A stretch of DNA of 64,000 bases from an uncultured Rhodobiaceae bacterium (GCA_913045225.1 CAJWPC010000001.1:79128-143127); one strand, 5' to 3'. Shown: positions 1-39,002, counted from the stretch's first letter. Numbers and translations are program-made. The notes: a model not told the origin generated them from the sequence alone.

Positions 1-1518
1 ACAGAGCTGCAGGTTAGTACCGAAGTTAAGTCTCATAACATGAAGGATGAAGATCAAATTCCACTCAGGAAATATGAACAAGCGAGGGTACTCGGAGGTG
101 GTTCATCTATAAACGGGTTAGTTGCAAATAGGGGTGCGCCAAACGATTACAGTATATGGGAGGAAAGAGGAGCAAAAGGTTGGTCGTGGGATGACGTACT
201 CCCATATTTTAAGAAAGTAGAAAAGGACACAGATTTTCAAGGTCCATTTCACGGTAATGATGGAAATATACCTGTCAGCCGAATTTTTCCTGATATTTGG
301 AATGGTCATGCTAAAGCATCTGCATCTGCATTTGAAGAGGCAGGATTCAAATACCTTGAAGATCAAAATGGAAAGTTTGAGGATGGCTATTTTCCTGTAA
401 CTGGCTCATTTATATACGAGAGAAGGGTTTCGGCAGCAATGGGCTATCTGACACAAGGCATCCGAAATCGAAAGAATCTAACAATAATGACCGAGTCATT
501 CGTTAAAGAAATTCTCTTTGATGGGAAAAAATGTATCGGTGTAAAGGTCAGAATTGAAGGCAAAGATAAAAAATTTTTTGCAAAAGAAATAATATTAAGT
601 TCAGGCGCAATTCATTCCCCAGCACATTTGATGAGGGCAGGAATTGGCCCCGCAATGGATCTCAAAGATAAGGGCATAAATGTACTAAAGAATCTTGGTG
701 GTGTCGGACAGAGGCTAATGGATCACCCGTCAATTAATATTGCCTCATTTATAAAACCTGAGGCACGAATTAATGAATATTCAAGACGGCATCTACTTGT
801 TGGCATGCGTTATTCATCTGGCCTTAAGAATATTCCAAAAGGTGACATGTATGTAGCGGTATGTTCAAAGACGGCTTGGCATTCAATTGGTGATCAACTA
901 GCTGCATTTATTTTATTTGTAAATAGAACCTACTCTGAGACAGGTCAAGTAAGATTAAGTACCACAGATCCTTATGATGAGCCAATTGTTGAGTTTAATT
1001 TACTTTCCGATGAGAGAGATCTTATGCGTCTGATGGAAGGCTTTCGTAAAATGGTTTTAATCCAACAAACTGAACCATTTCAGAGGATCTCTAAAGAGGT
1101 CTTTGCTGCAGTTTATGGTGATAAGGTGAGGCAGGTTGGAAAGGTCAATTTACAAAATAAATTACTCACAAAGGTCTTCTCAAAAATGCTTGATGGGCCG
1201 GATGCGTTGAGGAGGTATTTGCTAAATAAATTTGTTATCGAAGCACCTGAATTATCTGTACTGATGTCAGATGACGAAGTTTTATCAGATTTTATTAAAA
1301 AATCAACTGTTGGTGTGTGGCATGCATCATGCACCTGCAGAATGGGTGCTAAAACTGATAAAATGGCTGTTACTGACAATGAGGGTCGAGTGCATGGAAT
1401 AGATGGTTTGAGGGTAGTTGATGCGTCAATTTTTCCTATAGTACCATGCGCAAACCTAAATTTTCCAACCCTTATGACTGCGGAAAAGATTTCAGAAAAG
1501 ATACTTGCCTCAAACTAA
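1..1518 (+). CDS. GMC-family FAD oxidoreductase, 5-hydroxymethylfurfural oxidase (HMFO)-like; 5' truncated by window edge
   Basis: Frame is open from base 1 and the N-terminal GxGxxG is missing. Motifs ARVLGGGSSING, GWSWDDVLPYF, SSGAIHSP, GVGQRLMDHP, GVWHASCTCRMG, VVDASIFP, ANLN (His/Asn pair). Confidence 0.9.
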   Translation, partial: TELQVSTEVKSHNMKDEDQIPLRKYEQARVLGGGSSINGLVANRGAPNDYSIWEERGAKGWSWDDVLPYFKKVEKDTDFQGPFHGNDGNIPVSRIFPDIWNGHAKASASAFEEAGFKYLEDQNGKFEDGYFPVTGSFIYERRVSAAMGYLTQGIRNRKNLTIMTESFVKEILFDGKKCIGVKVRIEGKDKKFFAKEIILSSGAIHSPAHLMRAGIGPAMDLKDKGINVLKNLGGVGQRLMDHPSINIASFIKPEARINEYSRRHLLVGMRYSSGLKNIPKGDMYVAVCSKTAWHSIGDQLAAFILFVNRTYSETGQVRLSTTDPYDEPIVEFNLLSDERDLMRLMEGFRKMVLIQQTEPFQRISKEVFAAVYGDKVRQVGKVNLQNKLLTKVFSKMLDGPDALRRYLLNKFVIEAPELSVLMSDDEVLSDFIKKSTVGVWHASCTCRMGAKTDKMAVTDNEGRVHGIDGLRVVDASIFPIVPCANLNFPTLMTAEKISEKILASN

Positions 1519-1519
1519 T

Positions 1520-2650
1520 TTATGATAGTTTTTCAGAGAGCCATTCAAACGACGCGGCAGCCCAATGATCCTGGTACTTGAACGCGCAATGCCCAGCATC
1601 TGGGTAAATGCGAGCCTCTCTTCCATGAGGTGGGCCGTTCTCCAACATAAAGTAGATATTTCCAATAGGTGCAAGATGATCTTTTTTACCATTAATTAGA
1701 AGCATTGGCTGGTTTATCTTATCAAGTATACCAAGACTGCTTAATGACCATTTTTCAAATAACATCTGCTCTTTTTCTACAGTCCAAGGTGGAAAAGATG
1801 GTGGGTCTCCTATCTGCCCAAAGACATGCTGTGCTCGATCATTCCGTGCTTTTACAAAATTGCTCATTTCCTCTTCTGTCATCTTGTAACCGAAGGGATG
1901 CCCTGCATTTGCAACTATAGCTTTGACCATTTCGGGATAGGATCCTGCAAGTTGTACGACAGAATAGCCTCCTCTGCTTATACCAAAGGCACCTATCTTA
2001 TTTTCATCAACTTCAGGTCTACATGCAAGGTAGTCGATAGCTGCCATCCAAGCTGATACTGACTCTGGCTCCCATGGAAATGGATTTTCTCCGGTGGCGG
2101 GCCCATCCATGACAAGCGATGCTAGACCATTATCAATGGCATGCTGTGAAGCCCAACCTCTATCTTCCTTAAACATATCAGCTCCACACATGATGAGAAC
2201 TGCGGCAGTTTTCTCAGCCCCTTTTGGACACCTGTAATGACACGTTATTTCCTTATCACCACAACGGACTTTAACTATTTCAACTTTGGGCTCAAGTAGC
2301 TCACATGCTTTTCTGTATACCCTTGAGCATTCAGCGCTAATTTTTTTTTTATTCTCGGTAATCTCACCTGGATATCTTGCAATAGATAGGTACGTTTTTG
2401 CTAGCATAAACTCATTATATGCTTTCTGTTGGTTATTTTCCCTAATGAATTCGTCACCCTTCTTTTCATGTGTATCAGCAACTTCACTCCATATTGGTAT
2501 CCAAGACTCTTCAGTCGTACTTTTTATCTTACTAACCGCGGACACAAGTTCGTCTAGATCAGTTAGCATAGGCATCCACCTTCTGTAGAACCCCCCATAC
2601 TCAACAGCATATGGATTCTCCCCTGCGCTAAATTTAATTTGATCTCCCAT
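1520..2650 (-). CDS. Alpha/beta hydrolase, FrsA / 2,6-dihydroxypseudooxynicotine hydrolase-like
   Basis: Nucleophile elbow GISRGG, acid motif GKKDHL, His motif DAGHC; N-terminal helical cap; DGPATGE. Confidence 0.85.
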   Translation of the reverse strand: MGDQIKFSAGENPYAVEYGGFYRRWMPMLTDLDELVSAVSKIKSTTEESWIPIWSEVADTHEKKGDEFIRENNQQKAYNEFMLAKTYLSIARYPGEITENKKKISAECSRVYRKACELLEPKVEIVKVRCGDKEITCHYRCPKGAEKTAAVLIMCGADMFKEDRGWASQHAIDNGLASLVMDGPATGENPFPWEPESVSAWMAAIDYLACRPEVDENKIGAFGISRGGYSVVQLAGSYPEMVKAIVANAGHPFGYKMTEEEMSNFVKARNDRAQHVFGQIGDPPSFPPWTVEKEQMLFEKWSLSSLGILDKINQPMLLINGKKDHLAPIGNIYFMLENGPPHGREARIYPDAGHCAFKYQDHWAAASFEWLSEKLS

Positions 2651-2744
2651 TTACAAAGCCTATCGTGTATATATAATTAAATATATATTTATTTAACAAA
2701 AAAATAAATGTGCAAAATAAAGAAATACAGGGGATTTATTCATC

Positions 2745-3740
2745 ATGAGAGCAGCGGTAATTGGTCTAGGTTGGTGGGGTAAACAAATAATAAAATGCCT
2801 CAATGAGAGCAAAAAAATTGATATAACGCATGCTTTTGATCCTCAAATAAGTAAGGATGACCCAGTTTTTTCCAAGTTCTCGGTTGACCCGAGTTTAAAT
2901 TTTGACGCAATAATAGACAGTCCATCCGTTGATGCTGTCATTTTGGCAACACCAAATCAATTTCATGAAGAGCAAGTAATCTCTGCGGCAAACAAAGGAA
3001 AGCAGGTATTTTGTGAAAAACCAGTTGCCTTAAAATATGAGAGTATTAAGAGAATGGCATCCGCTTGCAAGAAAAATGGTATTATTCTCGGTGTCGGCCA
3101 TGAGCGACGATGGGAGCCCGCAATGGTCAAGCTCAGATACATGCTTGATGAAGGTATGCTTGGAGAAATCTTGCATATGGAGACAAATTTTAGTCACGAT
3201 ATCTTTATGAAGCTAGACAGAGATAATTGGAGGTTGGACCCAAAATCTGCTCCAGCCGGTGGAATGACTGCTCTTGGGATACATTTATCCGATTTTTTTG
3301 TGTCTTTCCTGGGATCGGCAAAGACTGTTTATGCAAAAACTGGCTCAATAGTCTTGGAGCATCCAAAAAAAGATACATTATCAGTGAATATAAGGTTTAA
3401 AAATAATGTCACAGCGTCACTCGCTGTCATGATATCGACTCCATTTTATGGTCGGTTTACTGTGTTTGGCGAGAAAGGTTGGGTAGAAATAAGGGAAGTA
3501 TCAAATGTTGATTTTGACGATCCAGCTGAATTTATCTATTGCGATAAACATGGCAAAAGAGTGGTTGAAGAACACCCGGTTGTAAATACCGTAAAATTGA
3601 ATTTCGAAGAATGGGCAGACGCGGTTGCAGGTCGTTCCACATATCGTATTAATATAGATGAAGTAGTATCAAATGTTCAAATATTAGAATCTATAATTAA
3701 TTCAGCTGAAAAAAATGAAATTATTAAAATAACCGATTAA
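2745..3740 (+). CDS. Gfo/Idh/MocA family NAD(P)-dependent oxidoreductase
   Basis: N-terminal GLGWWG Rossmann motif, ATPNQFH, FCEKP, GG-x-LGIH. Confidence 0.9.
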   Translation: MRAAVIGLGWWGKQIIKCLNESKKIDITHAFDPQISKDDPVFSKFSVDPSLNFDAIIDSPSVDAVILATPNQFHEEQVISAANKGKQVFCEKPVALKYESIKRMASACKKNGIILGVGHERRWEPAMVKLRYMLDEGMLGEILHMETNFSHDIFMKLDRDNWRLDPKSAPAGGMTALGIHLSDFFVSFLGSAKTVYAKTGSIVLEHPKKDTLSVNIRFKNNVTASLAVMISTPFYGRFTVFGEKGWVEIREVSNVDFDDPAEFIYCDKHGKRVVEEHPVVNTVKLNFEEWADAVAGRSTYRINIDEVVSNVQILESIINSAEKNEIIKITD

Positions 3741-3748
3741 TTGATGAA

Positions 3749-4750
3749 ATGATGTCCATCAAGAATTATGTAAATAATCTGTCTGATGAAGACCTAAAAA
3801 GAATATATAAAAAAATGCTCATGATCAGAAAGTGTGAAGAGCATTTGGGAGAGGCCACAAAAAATGGAGCCTTTCCAGGTGCTGTTCATCTTTATATTGG
3901 TCAAGAGGCAATCGCGGTACCGTTGTGTGATCAGTTGAATGACTCTGATTGGATATCGAGTACACATAGGGGCCATGGACATTTCATCGCAAAAGGTGGC
4001 GACGTAAAAAAAATGATGGCTGAAATTTACGGAAAGTCGACGGGAATATGTGGGGGTAAAGGTGGCTCTATGCATGTTGCTGATTTCAAAAAGGGAATAA
4101 TTGGAGCAAATGGTGTTGTTGCAGGCGGTATGGGATTAGCTGTAGGTGCAGCCCTGGCATCCAAAATGGATGGTAACGGAGCCGTTTCAATAATTTTTTT
4201 TGGGGATGGTGCAGCAAATCAGGGCGTTTTAATGGAGGCCATGAATATATGTTCATTGTGGAACTTACCAATGATATTTATGTGTGAAAATAACCAATAT
4301 TCTGAGTTTACTCACACATCGGAGGTAACTTCTGGAAAGATTGTTGATAGGGCTGAACCTTTTGGTATTCCAAAATATGAAGTTGATGGAAATAACGCTG
4401 TTGATGTGTGGCAAGCTGCCTATCAGGCAGTTCAGAGGGGGAGAAATGATGAGGGCCCATCATTTATTGAAGCGCATACATACAGGCAACGTGGGCATGT
4501 TGAATTTGAATACACATTTTTGTCACGAACTTACCGAGATCAGAGCGAGGTTGAGTTATGGAAAACAAATGACAAAGACCCGATATTGAGGCTTGAGTCA
4601 TACTTTATAGAACATAGTAAATATTCTGGAGATGATATTGAAAAAATTCAGAAGGAGGTTCAGGACGAAGTTGATGATGCAGTAAAATTTGCAATTGAAA
4701 GCCCAGAGCCAGAAATTTCCAGTGCTATGGATCATATGATTGAGAGATAA
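3749..4750 (+). CDS. ThDP-dependent dehydrogenase E1 alpha subunit (AcoA/PdhA-like)
   Basis: HLYIGQEA, THRGHGH, GKGGSMH, GDGAANQG...ENNQY ThDP motif, TYRQRGH. Confidence 0.93.
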   Translation: MMSIKNYVNNLSDEDLKRIYKKMLMIRKCEEHLGEATKNGAFPGAVHLYIGQEAIAVPLCDQLNDSDWISSTHRGHGHFIAKGGDVKKMMAEIYGKSTGICGGKGGSMHVADFKKGIIGANGVVAGGMGLAVGAALASKMDGNGAVSIIFFGDGAANQGVLMEAMNICSLWNLPMIFMCENNQYSEFTHTSEVTSGKIVDRAEPFGIPKYEVDGNNAVDVWQAAYQAVQRGRNDEGPSFIEAHTYRQRGHVEFEYTFLSRTYRDQSEVELWKTNDKDPILRLESYFIEHSKYSGDDIEKIQKEVQDEVDDAVKFAIESPEPEISSAMDHMIER

Positions 4751-4753
4751 GCA

Positions 4754-5728
4754 ATGTCCAAGCAAAGAATGATGCCAGCAATAAATCTGGCATTACAAGA
4801 AGAAATGGAAAGAGATAATAAAGTTATCCTTTACGGAGAGGATGCAGGTATTTCCCTTTTAGGGCAGACAACAGGTCTTCAAGAAAATTTTGGTAAAGAC
4901 AGGGTTAGAGATACGCCAATCTGTGAGAATATTATGACCGGTATGGCTGTTGGTGCAGCAGCAGCTGGATACCGACCAATTTGCCATCTTTTGTATGGAA
5001 ACTTCATATATACAGGGTTTGACTCAATAGCCAACCAAGCAGCAAAATTAAAGTATATGACCGCTGGGCAAGTAAAATTACCTATAGTTTATATGGCAGT
5101 TATCGGCGGCGGGAGGTCTGCGGCAGCGCAACACTCAGATATACCTTATCCCGCATTGATGAATTTAGGTGGTGTGAAGGTTGTTGTGCCGTCAAACTCT
5201 AGAACAGCCAAAGGCTTATTGAAGTCTGCGATCAGGGATGATAATCCAGTATTTTACTTAACTGCAGCTGGTGGTGGCCGACCAGAGGAAGTACCAGATG
5301 ATGATAACTATTTAATACCAATTGGGAAATCAGAAGTAATAAACCAAGGAAATGATGTCACAATTATATCAATTGGTTCAATGACTCTGAAAGCACTGCA
5401 GGCAACAAAAAAACTTAACGAAAAAGGTATAGGGGTTGACTTAATTGACCTCTTATCATTAGTGCCAATTGACGAGGATACAATCATAAATTCGTTAAAG
5501 AAAACAGGAAGAGTGATCATTGTTGATGAGGCTCGTGACATATGTAGTGCAGCAAGCCATATATCGGCTATCTTATCAGATAAGGCATTCAAATATCTAA
5601 AATCACCTATAAAAAGAGTTACAGTAAAAGATGTTGCAATTCCATACTCGCCCATCTTAGAAAGCCATGTGATACCAGAGGTAGCCGATATTGTGAATTG
5701 TATTGAAGAATTATTGGAGTTAAATTAG
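4754..5728 (+). CDS. ThDP-dependent dehydrogenase E1 beta subunit (AcoB/PdhB-like)
   Basis: RVRDTPICE, GMAVGAA, AQHS, AKGLLKSAIRDDNPV, IDLLSLVPID, KKTGRVIIVDE. Confidence 0.92.
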   Translation: MSKQRMMPAINLALQEEMERDNKVILYGEDAGISLLGQTTGLQENFGKDRVRDTPICENIMTGMAVGAAAAGYRPICHLLYGNFIYTGFDSIANQAAKLKYMTAGQVKLPIVYMAVIGGGRSAAAQHSDIPYPALMNLGGVKVVVPSNSRTAKGLLKSAIRDDNPVFYLTAAGGGRPEEVPDDDNYLIPIGKSEVINQGNDVTIISIGSMTLKALQATKKLNEKGIGVDLIDLLSLVPIDEDTIINSLKKTGRVIIVDEARDICSAASHISAILSDKAFKYLKSPIKRVTVKDVAIPYSPILESHVIPEVADIVNCIEELLELN

Positions 5729-5730
5729 CC

Positions 5731-5970
5731 ATGGAAAGAATAGTTAAAATGCCTAGAATGGGCATGAATGTTGATGAAGGTACAATCGTTGAGTGGCATG
5801 TAAAAGAAGGTCAGAGTTTTTCAAAGGGTGATGCCCTATATTCCATCGAGACCGATAAGACAACTGCTGAGATAGAAGCACCCTGTGACGGTGTTTTAAA
5901 TAAAATTCATGCAAATATTGGTGACGATATATCCGTTGGTGACCAGATATGCTCCATTACCGAGACTTAA
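5731..5970 (+). CDS. Stand-alone lipoyl-domain (lipoyl carrier) protein
   Basis: 79 aa; MPRMG..EGTIVEW..KEG..GD.L..IETDKT..EIEAP..G is a single lipoyl domain with the DK attachment lysine; 2 nt after E1 beta. Confidence 0.9.
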   Translation: MERIVKMPRMGMNVDEGTIVEWHVKEGQSFSKGDALYSIETDKTTAEIEAPCDGVLNKIHANIGDDISVGDQICSITET

Positions 5971-6009
5971 TTATCAAAAATATTATCTTTTATATCAATA
6001 TGTCCCAGC

Positions 6010-7395
6010 ATGCAATCTAGTCCAAAAAATACTTTTATGTATCATTATATGGATACCGTCCGTATGGGTTTTCCAATAATTATTGCTAGGACTTCAATTC
6101 TGATTATGGTTACAGTTGATGCAATCATGACGGGCTGGGCCGGTCCAGATCAACTGGCATATCTGGGAATTGGACTAGCTCCAGTAATTGCGCTCATGGT
6201 TATTTTTATTGGCGCACTAAACGCAACAGTCGTGCTTGCATCACAATCAATTGGAGCAAATGAAAGACACAAAGTTGGTTCTATTTGGTACTCCGCTATG
6301 ATCCATAGTATCTTATTTTCAATTATCTCTATCTTTATATCTTTTTTCTTTGAAGATTTTTTTCTAATTACAGGGCAAGAGCTTAATATCGCAGAGGAAG
6401 GTGCACGAGTTTCTCTGGTGTTCGCATACGGAATTCCTGGGATGTTATTTTTTGTCACAACAAACCTTATTTTAGAGGCAATGGGTTACCAAAAAGCGGG
6501 CATGTATGTCATGATTTTTGTTAATATACTAAACGTAATTTTTAATGGCATCTTCATATTATCTTGGGGCTCTTTTTATAATGGAGGTGGGGCTTATGAA
6601 GCGATCGTTATCTCATCAATATTAAGATGGACAGCATTTTTTATGACCTTAATTTACCTTGTCTACATATCAAAGAAGAATGGTGATGTTTTTAAGATGA
6701 AAAAAAACTTTTTAGAAATTAGAGAGAACATGTTTACTTTAAAATCAAGTATATCGAAGAAATTTAGAAAAATAGCGCTTCCAATGGCATTGTTGCAAGG
6801 TGTTGAAGTAATTGCCTTTGCAGCAGTTGTATTTATTGCGGGATGGTTTGGATCAGCTGCGCTTGCCGCTCACCATGCAACTTACACTGTTGTGAATTTA
6901 ATATATATGAGTGCAATTGGAGTCGCTGGTGCTACCTCTATCAGGGTTGGTATTGCGGTTGGTCAGCAATCAGTCAGCGATACGAAAAGAGCAGGGTTAA
7001 TGGGTATGCTGGTTGCTTTTTCAATAACGCTCCCAATATCTGTTTTTACACTCATTAATCCTGATGTGATTGCACGAGTTTTCTTTGATAACCCAGAGAT
7101 GATTTTGATGACTCAGGAAATAATATTTTTTGTAGGATTTCTATTTATTTTTGACACTTTGATGGCGGTTTCACTTGGTGCATTGAGAGGTACTGGAGAT
7201 GTGTGGGCGCCATTTATTATATTATCTGTCTGTTTCTGGATTTTTGGAATACCGCTTTCATACGTTTTTGCTGTCACACTTGATTTTGGATTGATTGGAT
7301 TATGGATTGGAATTGGTATTGGAATTATAAGTTCATTATTGATTCTCGCACCAAGATTTTATATAATTTCCTCATCTCCAATACAAAGATTATAA
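6010..7395 (+). CDS. MATE family efflux transporter
   Basis: About 12 hydrophobic segments; VDAIMTG..G...LA, SQSIGA, LAAHH, SIRVG..VG, ALRGTGD, GLIGLWIG. Confidence 0.9.
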   Translation: MQSSPKNTFMYHYMDTVRMGFPIIIARTSILIMVTVDAIMTGWAGPDQLAYLGIGLAPVIALMVIFIGALNATVVLASQSIGANERHKVGSIWYSAMIHSILFSIISIFISFFFEDFFLITGQELNIAEEGARVSLVFAYGIPGMLFFVTTNLILEAMGYQKAGMYVMIFVNILNVIFNGIFILSWGSFYNGGGAYEAIVISSILRWTAFFMTLIYLVYISKKNGDVFKMKKNFLEIRENMFTLKSSISKKFRKIALPMALLQGVEVIAFAAVVFIAGWFGSAALAAHHATYTVVNLIYMSAIGVAGATSIRVGIAVGQQSVSDTKRAGLMGMLVAFSITLPISVFTLINPDVIARVFFDNPEMILMTQEIIFFVGFLFIFDTLMAVSLGALRGTGDVWAPFIILSVCFWIFGIPLSYVFAVTLDFGLIGLWIGIGIGIISSLLILAPRFYIISSSPIQRL

Positions 7396-7406
7396 GATTG
7401 TCATTT

Positions 7407-8294
7407 ATGAGATTTCCAATAATAGATAGTCATCATCACATATGGAAGCAATCAGACTTAGATTGGCTCCAAGGTGAAATACAGCCAAGAATATTTGGAG
7501 ATTATACTTCAATCAAAAAAGACTATCTCATCGATGACTTTATTGAAGATGTTGTAAATTTTGGAGTGGAGCAGTCAGTTTATATCCAATGCAACTGGCC
7601 AATCGATAAATATTATGAAGAGGCAAAGTTTGTTGATGACTCTTTCAATAATTCGGGATGGCCAAACGCGTTTATCGGATATTGTAATTTATTAGATCCA
7701 AATGCTCCTGAGATGCTCGATAAATTATTTGACTATCCTCTGACGAGGGGCATAAGAATGCAGCTTCATTGGCATGAGCGTGAATTATATTCATTTGCAT
7801 CAGCGCCAGATATTATGGAGGATTCAATATTTAATAATAATTTTGAGTATTTGGCTAAAAAAGACTCAATTTTTGAATTACAAGTTTTTCAAAGTCAACT
7901 GAGTCATACAAAAAATCTTTTGAAAAGGTTTCCCGAAACAACTTTTGTTCTTCAGCATGCCGGCATGCCGCATGACTTATCGAATACTGGTTGGGCTGAA
8001 TGGAATATATTCATGGAAAGCCTTGCTGAATATAAGAACCTTTTCATTAAACTTTCAGGATTGGGAACATTTATTAATAAAAATGACCCTGAGTTTATAT
8101 CAAATATTGTTCAGAAAGTTTTAGCAAACTATCCATCAGATAGGTGTTTGTTTGGATCGAATTTCCCGATTGAGAAAATCTGGTGTAATTATGGCGATCT
8201 GATTAATGCATTCCGAATGGCAACGCGTAATATACCAATTACTGATCAGAAAAATATTTTTCATGATACGGCAAGCAAAGTTTATGGGATTTAG
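7407..8294 (+). CDS. Amidohydrolase_2 family protein (COG3618; L-fuconolactonase/LigI-like)
   Basis: Start reassigned to ATG 7407 (MRFPIIDSHHHIW); RGIR, QHAG, KLSG, FGSNFP. Confidence 0.85.
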   Translation: MRFPIIDSHHHIWKQSDLDWLQGEIQPRIFGDYTSIKKDYLIDDFIEDVVNFGVEQSVYIQCNWPIDKYYEEAKFVDDSFNNSGWPNAFIGYCNLLDPNAPEMLDKLFDYPLTRGIRMQLHWHERELYSFASAPDIMEDSIFNNNFEYLAKKDSIFELQVFQSQLSHTKNLLKRFPETTFVLQHAGMPHDLSNTGWAEWNIFMESLAEYKNLFIKLSGLGTFINKNDPEFISNIVQKVLANYPSDRCLFGSNFPIEKIWCNYGDLINAFRMATRNIPITDQKNIFHDTASKVYGI

Positions 8295-8295
8295 A

Positions 8296-9507
8296 TTATC
8301 TTGTGCCGAATATTATGACAGGGCGATCCTTTATTGGGTAATGTAGTACAGCTGCAAGCAAACCGAGTAAAACGGAAAACCACCACATAATGTTATAATC
8401 ACCAGTTAAGTCAAAAATCCACCCGCCCATCCACGAACTTACGAACCCACCTAATTGATGACTGAAAAATACAATTCCATATAGCATCGACATATATTTA
8501 GGTCCAAAAAAGGTTGCAACAAGACCACTTGTCAATGGGACGGTACCTAACCACAAGATACCAAGAACAAAGGTAAAAATTAATGTTGATATTACAGTGA
8601 TCGGTGTAATTATGTAGATTATAAATGCCAGAGCTCTGAGAGCATACAAAGCGACAAGTACATCATTTTTTTTGTATTTGTCACCTAAGCGACCAGCTAA
8701 TGCTACACCAAAAATATTTGCAAAACCAATCAAAGCGAGCGAAGTTGTAGCCACATTCCCCGGCAGTGACATATCTGAAATAAAAGCAGGCAGATGAGCG
8801 ACAATGAAATTCACATGAAATCCACAAATGAAAAAACCACATACTAGCAGTAGGAAGTTTTTTGATTTCAGTGCATGACTTAGTACCTCACTTAGTCTCT
8901 CACCAGCGTCATTCGTCTGGTTATTTTGGTTTCTTATTTTATCATTTTGTACCAGTCCGTAAACTAGAGGTATCATAACCAAGGAAATTGCGGCAAGTCC
9001 CAATAGAGCTCCCGACCAACCAAATGATTGAATGAAAGTGCCTGTAACGGGAACGCCTAAAAACATCCCTATTGAACCACCCATTGTTGTCAAACCTAGG
9101 GCGGTACCTCTTTTTTCAGGTGGTGCAGATTTTCCAACTGCACCTAGAATTACTGTAAAGCCCAATCCGGATAGCCCAGATCCTATAATTATTCCGCCAA
9201 GTAGTAATTCCTGAGGGGTGGCTGAATTTGATAAAATCAGAATACCACCCGAATAAAATAATGCACCTATTATAGCAACTCTTTTTAAACCAAATTTATC
9301 AGCTAGCGCCCCTGTAAATGGAGCAAGGGCTCCCCAAAGAAGATTCACAAGTCCAATTGAAAGAGCAAATGTCTCTCTTCCGATCTGCAGTGTTGTACTA
9401 ATTGGCTCCAGAAAAAGTCCAAATGATTGCCTAATACCAACTGCAATGGCAAGAATTAGGCCACCGCATATAATTTTAAATTGTAAAGGCGTCAATCCCT
9501 TAGTCAT
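8296..9507 (-). CDS. MFS transporter
   Basis: 12 TM segments; GALADKFG and GRLGDKY MFS loop motifs. Confidence 0.9.
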   Translation of the reverse strand: MTKGLTPLQFKIICGGLILAIAVGIRQSFGLFLEPISTTLQIGRETFALSIGLVNLLWGALAPFTGALADKFGLKRVAIIGALFYSGGILILSNSATPQELLLGGIIIGSGLSGLGFTVILGAVGKSAPPEKRGTALGLTTMGGSIGMFLGVPVTGTFIQSFGWSGALLGLAAISLVMIPLVYGLVQNDKIRNQNNQTNDAGERLSEVLSHALKSKNFLLLVCGFFICGFHVNFIVAHLPAFISDMSLPGNVATTSLALIGFANIFGVALAGRLGDKYKKNDVLVALYALRALAFIIYIITPITVISTLIFTFVLGILWLGTVPLTSGLVATFFGPKYMSMLYGIVFFSHQLGGFVSSWMGGWIFDLTGDYNIMWWFSVLLGLLAAVLHYPIKDRPVIIFGTR

Positions 9508-10396
9508 AAGCTCTACTCATTAAGATTTGTGTTTTAAACTTTTTAGTTTGCATGATGTAACTGCGACGATATACCTTAAGGCTCCATTTGTCATTCACTT
9601 TGTCAATATCATATTTTAAGAATGATAGTTTACCGCCGTTTGCTCGAGAGGTTGATGGGGCACCAAAGCAGGGAACATTAACCTCTTTTAGAGATATTTT
9701 TTTTTGACTTTCGGTGTGTAAGTGACCGTGTAATATCAAATTTATATTAAATCCACTGAGTATTTTAATTAATGAGTTCTTATTGAGCAGACCTTTAAAG
9801 TTCAGAAAACCGAATTCATGCAAAGGATGGTGTAATAGTAATATTATGAAATAATTATCTTTTGATAATGAATGTAATATCTCGGTTATGGTGTCTAATT
9901 GTGTTTCTGAGACACGCCCCCAAGACATTAGAGGTGGGGACGCGACAGCAGTTGAAATTCCAATGATTGCAATATCGTTAAATAATTTTAGATACGGAAA
10001 GGGTGACGCCTGAGTATTATCATGGTTATTTTCTGTGTATCGTCGCAGCATATACATTGAGTCTTCATAATTACATTTCACGTAATTATCATGGTTCCCA
10101 GGTATAATCGATAGCTTCTCTTTTGAGAAGTAACTTCCTAAGAAATCACTGGCCGACTCGAACTCACTGCGAAGTGACAAATTGACTATATCACCTGTCA
10201 AAATTGTATGGTCATCAGAATTTTTTAATATATCATCGAATATTATTTTGAGATTTTCAATGTCATGAATTTTTTTTCTGTTTGATGAATGATTAATAAA
10301 ACCAAACAATCTCTTGTTCAGTAAATCACTAAAACTCGGCTGAACTGTGATTGGAAGATGTATGTCTGAAATGTGGGATATAATCATATTATGCAC
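9500..10396 (-). CDS. Calcineurin-like metallophosphoesterase
   Basis: SDIH, TGD, PGNHD, LHHP, HGHLH metal motifs. Confidence 0.9.
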   Translation of the reverse strand: MHNMIISHISDIHLPITVQPSFSDLLNKRLFGFINHSSNRKKIHDIENLKIIFDDILKNSDDHTILTGDIVNLSLRSEFESASDFLGSYFSKEKLSIIPGNHDNYVKCNYEDSMYMLRRYTENNHDNTQASPFPYLKLFNDIAIIGISTAVASPPLMSWGRVSETQLDTITEILHSLSKDNYFIILLLHHPLHEFGFLNFKGLLNKNSLIKILSGFNINLILHGHLHTESQKKISLKEVNVPCFGAPSTSRANGGKLSFLKYDIDKVNDKWSLKVYRRSYIMQTKKFKTQILMSRAYD

Positions 10397-37180: not shown

Positions 37181-38062
37181 CTAAAATGCCCACTCTTTCC
37201 CTTTTTCAATAATAAATTCCCTGAAAACTGCGATTCTTTTTGAATTCCTTCTTTCTTCAGCATAGGTTAGATAGGTATCAATTTCTGGGAGTTTTGCATT
37301 GAAAGCTATTCTGACTAAATTATCATCCTGACCAACAAGATAATCCGGAAGCATTGCAATCCCAATACTGTTGGAGACCGCCATGTGTAATCCTTTTATA
37401 TTACCTATTTTTAAAATTGGTTTTATCTTATATTCTTTAGTTATATTCTCCAGCCAATTTATCTCTTTCAGATAATCGGGTGCCCTCCCATATGTGACAA
37501 TTTTATGGTTCGTAAGGTCACTTATCTTACTTGGGGTACCATACTCATCAAGATACTTTGGCGATGCGTATAAATGAAAATGAACAGTAAATAGTTTGCG
37601 TTGAATCAGATCTAATTGTTGTGGCTTATGAAACCTGATTGCGATATCGGCTTCCCTCATCCCAACATCAAGCTCTGCATCAGTTAACCTTAGCTCTAGA
37701 TTAATTTCAGGAAATTTTGAAGTAAAATCTTTAAGGCGAGGCGTAAGCCAATTAGTGCCTAGACCAACTGTTGTGGTAACAGATAAATCTCCCGATGGCC
37801 TTTCTTTGCTATCTATTAACTCAAATTCAGCTTCCTTAATTATATCAACAATATTTCTTGTCCGCTTATAGAGTAGTTCGCCCTGCTCGGTAAGTATAAG
37901 TCCTCGAGGGTGCCTGTGAAATAGCGGCATACCAACCTCATATTCGAGATTAGAAACCTGCCTACTAATAGCAGATTGACTTGTGTTAATTTCCTCACTT
38001 GCATGAGAAAAGCTACCAGCATCTGCAACAATATGAAAAATTCTTAACCTATCCCAGTCCAT
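37181..38062 (-). CDS. lsrB: LysR-type regulator, LsrB/VtlR orthologue
   Basis: DWDRLRIFH...GSF......SQSAISRQVS.LE...LFHRH.RGL.LTEQGE, VTTTVGLG; overlaps the trxB 3' end as in Rhizobiales. Confidence 0.85.
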   Translation of the reverse strand: MDWDRLRIFHIVADAGSFSHASEEINTSQSAISRQVSNLEYEVGMPLFHRHPRGLILTEQGELLYKRTRNIVDIIKEAEFELIDSKERPSGDLSVTTTVGLGTNWLTPRLKDFTSKFPEINLELRLTDAELDVGMREADIAIRFHKPQQLDLIQRKLFTVHFHLYASPKYLDEYGTPSKISDLTNHKIVTYGRAPDYLKEINWLENITKEYKIKPILKIGNIKGLHMAVSNSIGIAMLPDYLVGQDDNLVRIAFNAKLPEIDTYLTYAEERRNSKRIAVFREFIIEKGKEWAF

Positions 38063-39002
38063 TGGTATTCTTGTTTGCTAAAAAATTTTCAGCGTCCAGG
38101 GCGGCCATGCAGCCCATTCCTGCGGCAGTAACAGCTTGACGATATTTTTCATCGGTCACATCACCAGCAGCAAAGACACCAGATATTGAGGTTTTTGTAG
38201 ACCCAGGAGTGGTGAGAATGTATCCATTTTTGGTTTCTAAATCTTTTGTGAATAGTTCAGTTGCAGGTTTGTGACCAATTGCAATAAAAACACCGTCTGT
38301 TTCGAAGTGTCCTGTTTTATTTGATTTTGTGTTTCGTATATTTATGCCAGTCACAGAATTTGGATTTTTAGTACCCGTAATCTCATCTACAACACTATCC
38401 CAGATTACATTTATTTTCTTATTCTTGAATAATCTGTCTTCGAGTATCTTTTCGCATCGCAATTCATCTCGTCTATGTATGAGGGTTACTTTACTTGCAA
38501 AATTTGTTAAAAATAACGCCTCTTCAACAGCTGTATTGCCACCCCCAACGACAACTACAGTCTTATCTTTATAAAAGAACCCGTCACAGGTTGCGCAGGC
38601 TGAAACTCCAAAACCCTTGAATTTTTCCTCGGTTTCCAAACCAAGCCATTTTGCTTGGGCTCCAGTACATATAATAAGACTTTCGGCAATATACTCAGTG
38701 CCGGAGTCACCATTCATTTGGAATGGGTATTTAGATAGATTGCATAGATTGATGTGGTCATTTATCACTTCTACACCTGTGTTCTTGGCCTGCAGTCTCA
38801 TCTGATCCATGAGCCAAGGGCCCTGTATAATATCTGCAAAACCTGGGTAGTTTTCCACGTCGGTAGTTATTGTAAGTTGACCGCCGGGTTGGATACCTTC
38901 AATTAGAATTGGTTCTAGCATTGCGCGCGCAGCATAAATTGCAGCAGTGTATCCAGCTGGACCTGAACCAATTATTATTACTTTAGATTTTTTTTCAGCC
39001 AT
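38049..39002 (-). CDS. trxB: Thioredoxin reductase
   Basis: GSGPAG, GGQL..TT.VENYPG, CATCDG, GGGNTA, AAGDV.D..YRQA. Confidence 0.98.
   Translation of the reverse strand: MAEKKSKVIIIGSGPAGYTAAIYAARAMLEPILIEGIQPGGQLTITTDVENYPGFADIIQGPWLMDQMRLQAKNTGVEVINDHINLCNLSKYPFQMNGDSGTEYIAESLIICTGAQAKWLGLETEEKFKGFGVSACATCDGFFYKDKTVVVVGGGNTAVEEALFLTNFASKVTLIHRRDELRCEKILEDRLFKNKKINVIWDSVVDEITGTKNPNSVTGINIRNTKSNKTGHFETDGVFIAIGHKPATELFTKDLETKNGYILTTPGSTKTSISGVFAAGDVTDEKYRQAVTAAGMGCMAALDAENFLANKNTNGLG

Follow-up and report, generated by a model that had tools for sequence, protein, structure and literature searches.

In all 2-oxoacid and acetoin dehydrogenase systems known to us, the lipoyl domain and the core of E2 are held together. 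A review-level count from 2018 recognizes five characterized lipoate complexes, in addition to the LbpA proteins of sulfur oxidation (PMC6067878). Here, we analyze a locus in which the lipoyl domain is a protein of its own, located in a 64,000-nt stretch of DNA from an uncultured Rhodobiaceae bacterium (GCA_913045225.1, CAJWPC010000001.1:79128-143127). We refer to this whole stretch as the window, and positions are counted from its first letter unless another record is named. At positions 2745-8294, six genes on the + strand encode, by their Pfam content and in this order, a GFO/IDH/MocA dehydrogenase, the E1alpha and E1beta subunits of a thiamine diphosphate (ThDP)-dependent enzyme, a 79-aa lipoyl-only protein, a MATE family transporter, and an Amidohydro_2 protein. 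The locus belongs to the marine OCS116 cluster of the Alphaproteobacteria: its E1alpha is 98% identical to that of the single-cell genome AG-891-J06, and OCS116 contigs of about 1.36-1.38 Mb also carry it. Our comparison shows that a lipoyl-dependent E1 module lacking E2 and E3 is real and widespread, and that the E1alpha/beta-lipoyl unit is apparently an uncharacterized relative of the acetoin-cleaving system.

The acetoin dehydrogenase (Aco) system is encoded in Acinetobacter by lipA and the series acoA-acoB-E2 (511 aa)-lpdA-acetoin reductase-butanediol dehydrogenase, and in Paracoccus denitrificans by acoX-acoA-acoB-AcoC-...-butanediol dehydrogenase-sigma-54 regulator, where AcoC is composed of Biotin_lipoyl and Abhydrolase_1 domains. 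The window resembles these operons in having a heterotetramer-type ThDP E1, the E1alpha motif STHRGHGH, an AcoC-like lipoyl domain, and a secondary-alcohol dehydrogenase alongside; the reaction that we propose below, C-C cleavage of an alpha-hydroxyketone onto lipoate, would be a further likeness. However, AcoC comprises 367-511 aa, whereas the window lipoyl protein has 79 aa and no acyl-transferring domain. The pairing that marks an AcoC, a lipoyl plus an acyl-transferring domain beside acoB, is thus not found, PF00364 being the only domain in these 79 residues. The window also has no linked E3, AcoX, or AcoR, its dehydrogenase is a GFO protein rather than a butanediol dehydrogenase, and its E1alpha groups apart from AcoA in a neighbor-joining tree and has four additional residues behind the catalytic His. 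Matches from a plasmid collection, all below 53% identity and most accompanied by a full or split E2, served as comparators.

The nearest precedent is an Aco-like operon of Sulfolobus solfataricus, reported to have a truncated E2. Payne, Hough and Danson (FEBS Lett 2010) are said to have described it as a putative acetoin dehydrogenase, with an E1alpha/E1beta operon and an E2 truncated so that the catalytic domain is missing; the archaeal E1 reportedly acts on acetoin, and the truncated E2 reportedly keeps more than a bare lipoyl domain. A different division of E2 is seen in Phaeobacter inhibens pP92_e (L100, 6977-13979) and Pacificitalea manganoxidans pDY25-A (L101), with the gene order E1alpha-E1beta-428-aa two-lipoyl protein-succinate-semialdehyde-type dehydrogenase-292-aa catalytic-only 2-oxoacid_dh (PF00198)-lpdA; the neighboring genes encode a sugar ABC transporter, SDRs, and a member of the Xaa-Pro peptidase family. 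These natural split E2s show that a catalytic core need not share a polypeptide with the lipoyl carrier that it serves. They differ from the window in that the 292-aa core and lpdA are in the same operon and in that their E1alpha, 41% identical, lies outside the clade described below.

The pyruvate dehydrogenase (PDH) and branched-chain 2-oxoacid complexes use the same E1 families (PF00676, PF02779, and PF02780) and likewise a lipoyl domain as acceptor, whereas the window E1 scores below the curated cut-offs and is accompanied by no E2, E3, or subunit-binding domain. A more distant chemistry is that of the glycolicacyl-ACP systems of the QncN/QncL/QncM type, here called Qnc/Scl (quinocarcin, naphthyridinomycin, and scleric acid SclQ1-4), which sit in non-ribosomal peptide synthetase clusters and in which a ThDP E1-like enzyme and a lipoyl arm take a C2 unit from a ketose (PMC6335953). 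In QncL, an acyltransferase catalytic domain follows the lipoyl domain and works with an acyl carrier protein (ACP) (PMC6335953). Neither that domain nor a dedicated ACP occurs in the window cluster or elsewhere in the 64 kb, and the window is therefore not a Qnc-type member; of the analogy drawn in the initial annotation, membership falls away, and a chemical likeness, the passage of a ketose-derived unit from a ThDP enzyme to lipoate, may still hold. E2-containing relatives also occur near sugar genes. In Agrobacterium tumefaciens pAtCFBP7129b (L096, record 140726-153598), a complete E1alpha-E1beta-E2-lpdA-lipA set is immediately preceded by genes for a sugar ABC transporter, a PfkB kinase, and an NAD(P)H-dependent oxidoreductase, and C. 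difficile plasmids (L105) carry a similar E1-E2 set after glycoside hydrolase genes. Aco-like complexes within carbohydrate clusters thus appear common.

The E1alpha-E1beta-lipoyl triad

The gene for the lipoyl protein (5731..5970, + strand) encodes 79 aa that match PF00364 at residues 5-76 (71.6 bits), with neither a subunit-binding nor a catalytic domain. The predicted lipoyl-lysine is K43 in the motif ETDKT, which has the DK(A/T) turn of lipoyl domains and not the MKM of biotin carriers, and it is invariant in 10 homologues. Among NCBIfam models, those for E2/AcoC lipoyl domains score 48-84 bits, the best being the AcoC N-terminus (PRK14875, 84 bits), and those for biotin carriers at most 36 bits; the protein is accordingly assigned, by its sequence, as a lipoyl carrier and not a biotin carrier. 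One model, NF008854, which describes an alphaproteobacterial PDH E1beta with an N-terminal lipoyl domain, matches the 79-aa protein at 4-79 and the window E1beta at 141-460.

The absence of an E2 core and of E3 noted in the initial annotation holds for the cluster and for the window as a whole: a six-frame scan of the 64 kb with complete E2 and E3 queries found neither. The E2 query met only the 79-aa lipoyl protein, through the lipoyl part of E2, and the other weak match was one of 27 bits to a 317-aa Pyr_redox_2 protein (38049-39002), which, because of its size and Pfam content, looks like a thioredoxin reductase rather than E3.

The E1 subunits are encoded immediately upstream, E1alpha (333 aa) at 3749..4750 and E1beta (324 aa) at 4754..5728, both on the + strand. 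They carry the domain set of a heterotetrameric E1, E1_dh in alpha (PF00676, 239 bits) and Transket_pyr and Transketolase_C in beta (PF02779, 111 bits; PF02780, 120 bits), and the ThDP/Mg motif GDG-X(~26)-NN is present in E1alpha as FFGDGAANQG...CENN, invariant in the E1alpha alignment. The nearest solved structure to E1alpha is human PDH E1alpha (E=5e-53). Both subunits miss the PDH E1 cut-offs, alpha with 311.1 vs 393.85 (PDH_E1_alph_y, TIGR03182) and beta with 288.5 vs 321 (NF006667). The identity of E1alpha is 42-46% with AcoA proteins from canonical aco operons and 36% with an alphaproteobacterial PdhA, and the motif STHRGHGH is common to the triad clade and the Aco-like comparators, where alphaproteobacterial PdhA has TGYRDHGH. 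Some sources annotate close homologues of E1alpha as 'acetoin:DCPIP oxidoreductase alpha'; the model libraries searched contain no curated AcoA entry.

In a neighbor-joining tree, the triad E1alpha sequences group in a single clade that takes in OCS116 and in which the window E1alpha sits with 31 triad sequences. Outside it fall AcoA, the E1s of the sugar clusters that have a full E2 (Agrobacterium and C. difficile), the Phaeobacter split-E2 E1, and a Thermus E1, and PdhA is the most distant sequence. By this tree, the triad clade is separate from, yet beside, true AcoA. The clade also has a feature of its own, a 4-residue insertion right after the catalytic GH, which reads GHVEFEYTFLSRTYR in the window vs GHFEGDA----QTYK. 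The insertion is present in 31/31 sampled triad-clade members and absent in nine of 10 comparators, including the E2-linked ones and the Thermus free-lipoyl E1; the tenth, an OCS116 relative with different E1 genes (L107), is unrelated in this region. In PDH E1alpha, the loop at this place (GHSMSDP) is the phosphorylation loop lining the entrance of the lipoyl arm.

The conservation of the triad was examined in 84 loci, 80 of them from a scan with the E1alpha alignment, keeping one genome per species, and four added to these (L011-L014). In high-GC loci, neighbors were taken from homology clusters and from called genes with Pfam marks. The triad is found in 76 of the 84 loci, 69 of these outside OCS116; in the 76, the distance from the E1beta stop to the beginning of the lipoyl domain is -7 to +58 nt, and the open reading frame (ORF) continues for at most 13 residues beyond that domain. 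It spans the Alpha-, Beta- and Gammaproteobacteria, Acidobacteriota, and Actinomycetota; in a Chloroflexota locus, the lipoyl gene lies 3.6 kb away. Neither an E2 catalytic domain nor E3 nor lipA occurs within 10 kb in any of the 84 loci. The arrangement is therefore conserved and no peculiarity of the window. The window itself has the same form, with a 2-nt gap between E1beta and a 79-aa lipoyl ORF and no E2 or E3 in 64 kb. A homologue search with the 79-aa protein itself returned only OCS116-clade relatives, and a profile search with the lipoyl alignment against 1.84 billion representatives gave a list swamped by multi-lipoyl E2 proteins that says nothing on free carriers. The literature that we searched contains no description of a triad of E1 and a free lipoyl protein, in keeping with the word 'undescribed' in the initial annotation as far as this unit is concerned.

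A further E2-less triad stands on plasmid pTF24b of Thermus thermophilus TF24 (L104/L106, record 239248-244213), in the order TrmB-type sugar regulator-acoA-E1beta-82-aa protein-TRAP transporter-MFS. Its 82-aa 'hypothetical protein' is a Biotin_lipoyl domain, and its E1alpha lies outside the main triad clade.

A dehydrogenase regularly accompanies the triad. In the window, this is a 331-aa GFO/IDH/MocA NAD(P)-dependent dehydrogenase (2745..3740, + strand; PF01408, 97.7 bits; PF22725, 75.5 bits; PF02894), with the N-terminal Rossmann and C-terminal domains of its family, whose gene ends 8 nt upstream of E1alpha. It scores below all NCBIfam equivalog cut-offs (122 vs 350 for xylose 1-dehydrogenase; 111 vs 355 for IolG), and its nearest PDB entries are uncharacterized oxidoreductases. 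Elsewhere the partner is usually an SDR, which in 35 other triad loci takes the equivalent position, either immediately ahead of E1alpha or immediately behind the lipoyl gene. The tight link between dehydrogenase and E1alpha that had been read from the spacing is therefore supported, the GFO/E1alpha junction being also covered by an RNA contig (see below). An aldehyde dehydrogenase is near the triad in 19 loci, about 10 have a zinc alcohol dehydrogenase and about 10 an AP_endonuc_2 TIM barrel, and the other neighbors include TTT, TRAP, or ABC transporters, GntR-type regulators, and sulfatases. From these neighborhoods, the conserved unit is judged to be the dehydrogenase, E1alpha, E1beta, and the stand-alone lipoyl protein.

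Two of these contexts deserve separate mention. In Paracoccaceae (L036, 8186-13208; also L028, L032, L035, L039, and L044), the two halves of a split transketolase, in L036 a 275-aa Transketolase_N protein and a 327-aa Transket_pyr + Transketolase_C protein, bracket SDR-E1alpha-E1beta-lipoyl; L036 continues with an aldehyde dehydrogenase gene and then with genes for an enolase-superfamily protein, an SDR, and a zinc alcohol dehydrogenase, and its upstream side has a TctABC transporter together with a GntR regulator. In a 4.3-Mb genome (L098, 1-11239), the SDR and triad are preceded by genes for a sulfatase, an FGE-sulfatase, and an ABC transporter of the NitT/TauT type with an NMT1 binding protein. 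Sulfatases are near triads in about 10 loci, which hints at sulfated or sulfonated substrates in some triad lineages.

Layout of the cluster and its neighbors

The ORF list gives successive gaps of 8, 3, 2, 39, and 11 nt between the six genes, exactly reproducing the same-strand arrangement and spacing first noted. The last ORF opens at 7302, and its start was taken as the ATG at 7407 (295 aa), in agreement with the gene callers on ten near-identical contigs. The arrangement of all six genes is kept in relatives down to 72% E1alpha identity, and their tight spacing is, from the sequence, not attributable to chance. Within the OCS116 clade (E1alpha 72-100% identical), the entire 20 kb is syntenic, including the housekeeping flanks. 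A sigma-70-like promoter match on the + strand (TTTACA-16-TATAAT at 2650..2677, 11/12; a consensus match only) lies ahead of the GFO gene, in the 94 nt between it and the divergent hydrolase gene, and is the top scorer within 1400-9700, and no terminator-like site was found on the + strand between 2900 and 8294. Contigs from seawater metatranscriptomes cover pieces of all six genes, and three of them cross gene junctions: 3477-3902 crosses GFO/E1alpha, 4640-4838 crosses E1alpha/E1beta, and 7238-7910 crosses MATE/Amidohydro_2.

The last two genes of the cluster have a different distribution. The MATE family transporter (461 aa, 6010..7395, + strand) matches MatE and scores above the family cut-off of TIGR00797 (185 vs 147.4). 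The Amidohydro_2 protein (295 aa, 7407..8294, + strand; PF04909, 121 bits) is cog3618-like and belongs to a large family of proteins of about 295 aa. The described enzymes closest to it are the cog3618 lactonases, namely, the L-fucono-1,5-lactonase BmulJ_04915 (PDB 4DLF) and LigI. The family profile aligns with 4DLF over the full length (E=3e-28; E=6e-11 for the single sequence), and the N-terminus has the DxHxH motif with an extra His, giving DSHHH. In the amidohydrolase superfamily, the Asp of strand beta-8 is catalytic. In the window family, however, this residue is Asn: the motif GSNFP, with N252, is invariant in 26 homologues, where 4DLF has GSDWP. The protein also scores only 78.3 against the cut-off of 400 of the fuconolactonase model (FuconLaconase, NF052480). 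It therefore matches the cog3618 sugar lactonases at the level of the fold (PF04909) and departs from them in both curated score and beta-8 Asp. Of the earlier label 'atypical lactonase', the adjective is apt, given the Asn, and the noun is unproven. The idea that this amidohydrolase opens a lactone before E1 acts is without support, because the protein is divergent and has Asn in place of the catalytic Asp.

Outside OCS116, the pair and the triad were never found together. At the triad loci outside OCS116, there is no homologue of the GFO protein (one weak match, L087), MATE, Amidohydro_2, or FrsA-like proteins of the window, and a scan of metagenome contigs with the Amidohydro_2 alignment found an E1 or lipoyl gene at 0/75 non-OCS116 Amidohydro_2 loci. 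The suggestion that the six genes form one co-conserved pathway is thus not supported. On two unrelated high-GC metagenome contigs, both short and with no E1 genes seen (L116, 2-1760; L122, 1-2415), a MATE gene stands directly upstream of an Amidohydro_2 homologue that is 49-51% identical, and MATE-Amidohydro_2 therefore looks like a unit of its own. Other contexts of the family are TRAP-TauD-SDR-Amidohydro_2-EamA-SDR and zinc alcohol dehydrogenase-Amidohydro_2. Because the two units are conserved independently, we regard the locus as composite, the window cluster being on these comparisons a junction of [dehydrogenase-E1alpha-E1beta-lipoyl] and [MATE-Amidohydro_2]. In OCS116, the pair has come to lie behind the module, with which it appears to be co-transcribed, and its chemistry may or may not act on the compound that the module handles.

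Upstream of the cluster, the window begins within a GMC oxidoreductase gene (40..1518, + strand; PF00732 + PF05199), cut by the window start and 567 aa long in the related contig L001. It is followed by a divergent gene for a 376-aa FrsA-like alpha/beta hydrolase (1520..2650, - strand; PF06500). Downstream, a convergent gene encodes a 403-aa MFS transporter (8296..9507, - strand; PF07690), whose stop codon is 1 nt beyond that of the Amidohydro_2 gene and whose best NCBIfam match is an L-lactate MFS transporter (135 vs a cut-off of 320). In L001, the region upstream of the window start has an MFS-HpcH/HpaI aldolase-MFS-glyoxalase block before the full-length GMC gene; between glyoxalase and GMC (L001, 5316-6050), a 244-aa protein without a Pfam match is kept at 72% E1alpha identity (245 aa in L011). 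The rest of the 64-kb window is housekeeping (bc1 complex, UvrB/C, CarAB, DnaG, and RpoD) and adds nothing to the cluster.

The FrsA-like gene adjoins GFO in all OCS116-clade loci, L107 included, and no homologue of it was found at the triad loci outside OCS116. Its product is a possible thioester or ester hydrolase partner. That it might be the detached hydrolase half of AcoC was considered and rejected at the sequence level, since its match to Paracoccus AcoC by BLASTP (23% over 92 aa round the nucleophile elbow, E=0.008) is only fold-level and no hydrolase recurs beside other triads. The OCS116 relative L107 (1-4061, ENA BRAK15-1 scaffold_10207) has GMC, FrsA-like hydrolase, and GFO genes 78-82% identical to those of the window. 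Its E1alpha is close to that of the window only to about residue 183 and unrelated thereafter (61% overall), and its E1beta fragment is 34% identical to that of the window and 31-38% to its best matches among the other loci compared. Either recombination has put other E1 genes in this position, or the contig was chimerically assembled.

A few observations concern the sequence records themselves. One RNA contig (8150-8359) passes over the stop codons of the convergent Amidohydro_2 and MFS genes, which are separated by 1 nt, reflecting either overlap of the 3' ends of the two transcripts or DNA in an RNA library. In the long-read '_pilon' contigs L004, L006, L007, and L009 (0.9-1.4 Mb), the GMC, hydrolase, GFO, E1beta, MATE, and MFS genes are split into 2-3 ORFs; because the same genes are intact in short-read contigs of the same population, the splits look like residual indel errors rather than pseudogenes. 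Finally, a 7.9-kb contig labelled 'MAG: Balneola sp.' (L015, PCAT01000062.1) has an E1alpha 100% identical to that of the window and nearly as high scores for GMC, hydrolase, and GFO; it is filed under a Bacteroidota-type genus but almost certainly comes from OCS116 and was mis-binned.

A proposed mechanism and its alternatives

The reading that we favor, and in which our confidence is evenly balanced, is that an acetoin-dehydrogenase-like, C-C-cleaving E1 loads the free lipoyl protein, with the acyl group and the electrons handled in trans. The dehydrogenase, GFO in the window, would act on a diol, polyol, or sugar-like compound and oxidize one of its secondary alcohols, giving a ketone beside a hydroxyl, i.e., an alpha-hydroxyketone of the acyloin or ketose type. 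E1 would then add ThDP to the carbonyl and cleave the adjacent C-C bond with release of an aldehyde, which matches the frequent linkage of an aldehyde dehydrogenase in other lineages, and would reductively acylate the lipoyl-lysine of the free 79-aa carrier. The acyl-dihydrolipoyl carrier would then diffuse to partners encoded elsewhere, most likely the housekeeping E2 catalytic core for acyl-CoA formation and the housekeeping E3 for re-oxidation with NAD+; simple hydrolysis of the thioester would be a less likely route for the acyl group. The substrate class, the acylation of the carrier, and the trans partners are what we infer. The trans step is biochemically reasonable, since split E2s exist, E1o reductively acylates an isolated lipoyl domain with a rate of 99 per second, and acyl transfer has been assayed with an E2 catalytic domain expressed on its own (PMC5986005). 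The varied transporters and accessory enzymes around the triad suggest a family that acts on several related substrates rather than on acetoin alone.

Several points weigh against this reading. The GFO, SDR, and aldehyde dehydrogenase partners all score under the curated equivalog cut-offs of NCBIfam, so that no substrate emerges, and the zinc alcohol dehydrogenase and TIM-barrel partners are likewise below them. The E1 could equally act on a 2-oxo acid, the literature searched reports no assay of a triad-clade member, and the tree that separates the clade from AcoA is without support values. The housekeeping E2 core and E3 in OCS116 are presumed from general knowledge of aerobic Alphaproteobacteria. 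Since the whole 20 kb is syntenic in OCS116, local conservation is no proof that GFO and E1 are functionally coupled. Among the metatranscriptome contigs, none crosses the E1beta/lipoyl or lipoyl/MATE junctions, and carry-over of DNA is possible in these contigs, as RNA libraries can contain DNA.

An unlikely alternative is that the genes encode an ordinary acetoin/2,3-butanediol (or pyruvate) dehydrogenase with E2 core and E3 encoded elsewhere, such that only the gene layout is unusual. The identity to AcoA, the shared STHRGHGH, the rank of AcoC as best model for the lipoyl protein, the existence of split E2s, and the 'acetoin:DCPIP oxidoreductase' annotations all agree with this view, and the SDR partners score on meso-2,3-butanediol dehydrogenase about as well as on other SDR models. 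However, E1alpha forms a separate clade with its own insertion in the active-site loop and both subunits fall short of the PDH E1 models; no acoX, sigma-54 AcoR, or butanediol dehydrogenase equivalog occurs in the window or in the sampled triad loci, unlike in Paracoccus and Acinetobacter; and contexts as varied as TTT/TRAP/ABC transporters, sulfatases, an enolase-superfamily dehydratase, and a split transketolase point to several substrates. Least probable in our judgment is the linear six-gene pathway originally envisaged, in which the GFO product, a lactone or keto compound, is opened by the amidohydrolase and cleaved by E1 onto the lipoyl protein, with MATE for transport of substrate or product and a non-standard partner for removal of the acyl group. 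Operon-like spacing, one strong promoter-like site with no internal terminator-like site, RNA contigs over three junctions, and an arrangement kept to 72% E1alpha identity would all be expected of it, and Amidohydro_2 homologues elsewhere are often beside dehydrogenases (L134 and L145). Yet the six genes are co-conserved in one clade only, whose flanks are syntenic as well, MATE-Amidohydro_2 is a unit of its own, the Amidohydro_2 protein has Asn for the beta-8 Asp and 78 vs 400 on fuconolactonase, and MATE proteins are normally exporters.

Two further readings do away with E2. In one, which we consider improbable, CoA takes no part in releasing the acyl group from the dihydrolipoyl thioester: the thioester is hydrolyzed (e.g., by the FrsA-like protein), or a polyhydroxy-acyl group attacks it intramolecularly with one of its hydroxyls and forms a lactone for the Amidohydro_2 protein to open, and only E3 is borrowed. 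Consistent with it are the lack of a linked E2 core in all 84 triad loci, the FrsA-like hydrolase that stays beside GFO even where the E1 genes differ (L107), the fusion of a lipoyl domain to an alpha/beta hydrolase fold in Paracoccus AcoC itself, and the lactonase-like gene in the same operon. However, no hydrolase recurs beside triads outside OCS116, the FrsA-like protein resembles the hydrolase domain of AcoC only at fold level, the Amidohydro_2 protein is without the catalytic Asp, and discarding a thioester would presumably waste energy in a streamlined oligotroph. The other, broader reading, that the triad is a sixth kind of lipoate system, in which various hydroxyketones or ketoses are split by an Aco-like E1 that loads a diffusible lipoyl protein and the acyl group leaves without E2, through hydrolysis or through self-lactonization of a polyhydroxy-acyl thioester, is one we think quite unlikely. 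If true, it would make lipoate a free, ACP-like carrier instead of a swinging arm in a complex, and in OCS116 the neighboring hydrolase or the Amidohydro_2 protein would help in acyl release.

Significance for lipoate biology

The consistent pairing of a stand-alone lipoyl protein with an Aco-like E1, with no linked E2 or E3 in 84 loci from several phyla, and the clade-specific change in the active-site loop suggest a common, unstudied use of lipoate, by which diols, polyols, or sugar-like compounds are broken down. Marine 16S surveys detect the OCS116 clade widely, and its copy of the module is transcribed in seawater. The triad on the Thermus thermophilus plasmid offers a tractable test organism. 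Identification of the substrate would give a function to genes that now bear no annotation beyond 'TPP-dependent dehydrogenase E1' and 'lipoyl domain-containing protein', and would also test whether a free carrier and borrowed partners suffice for an E1.

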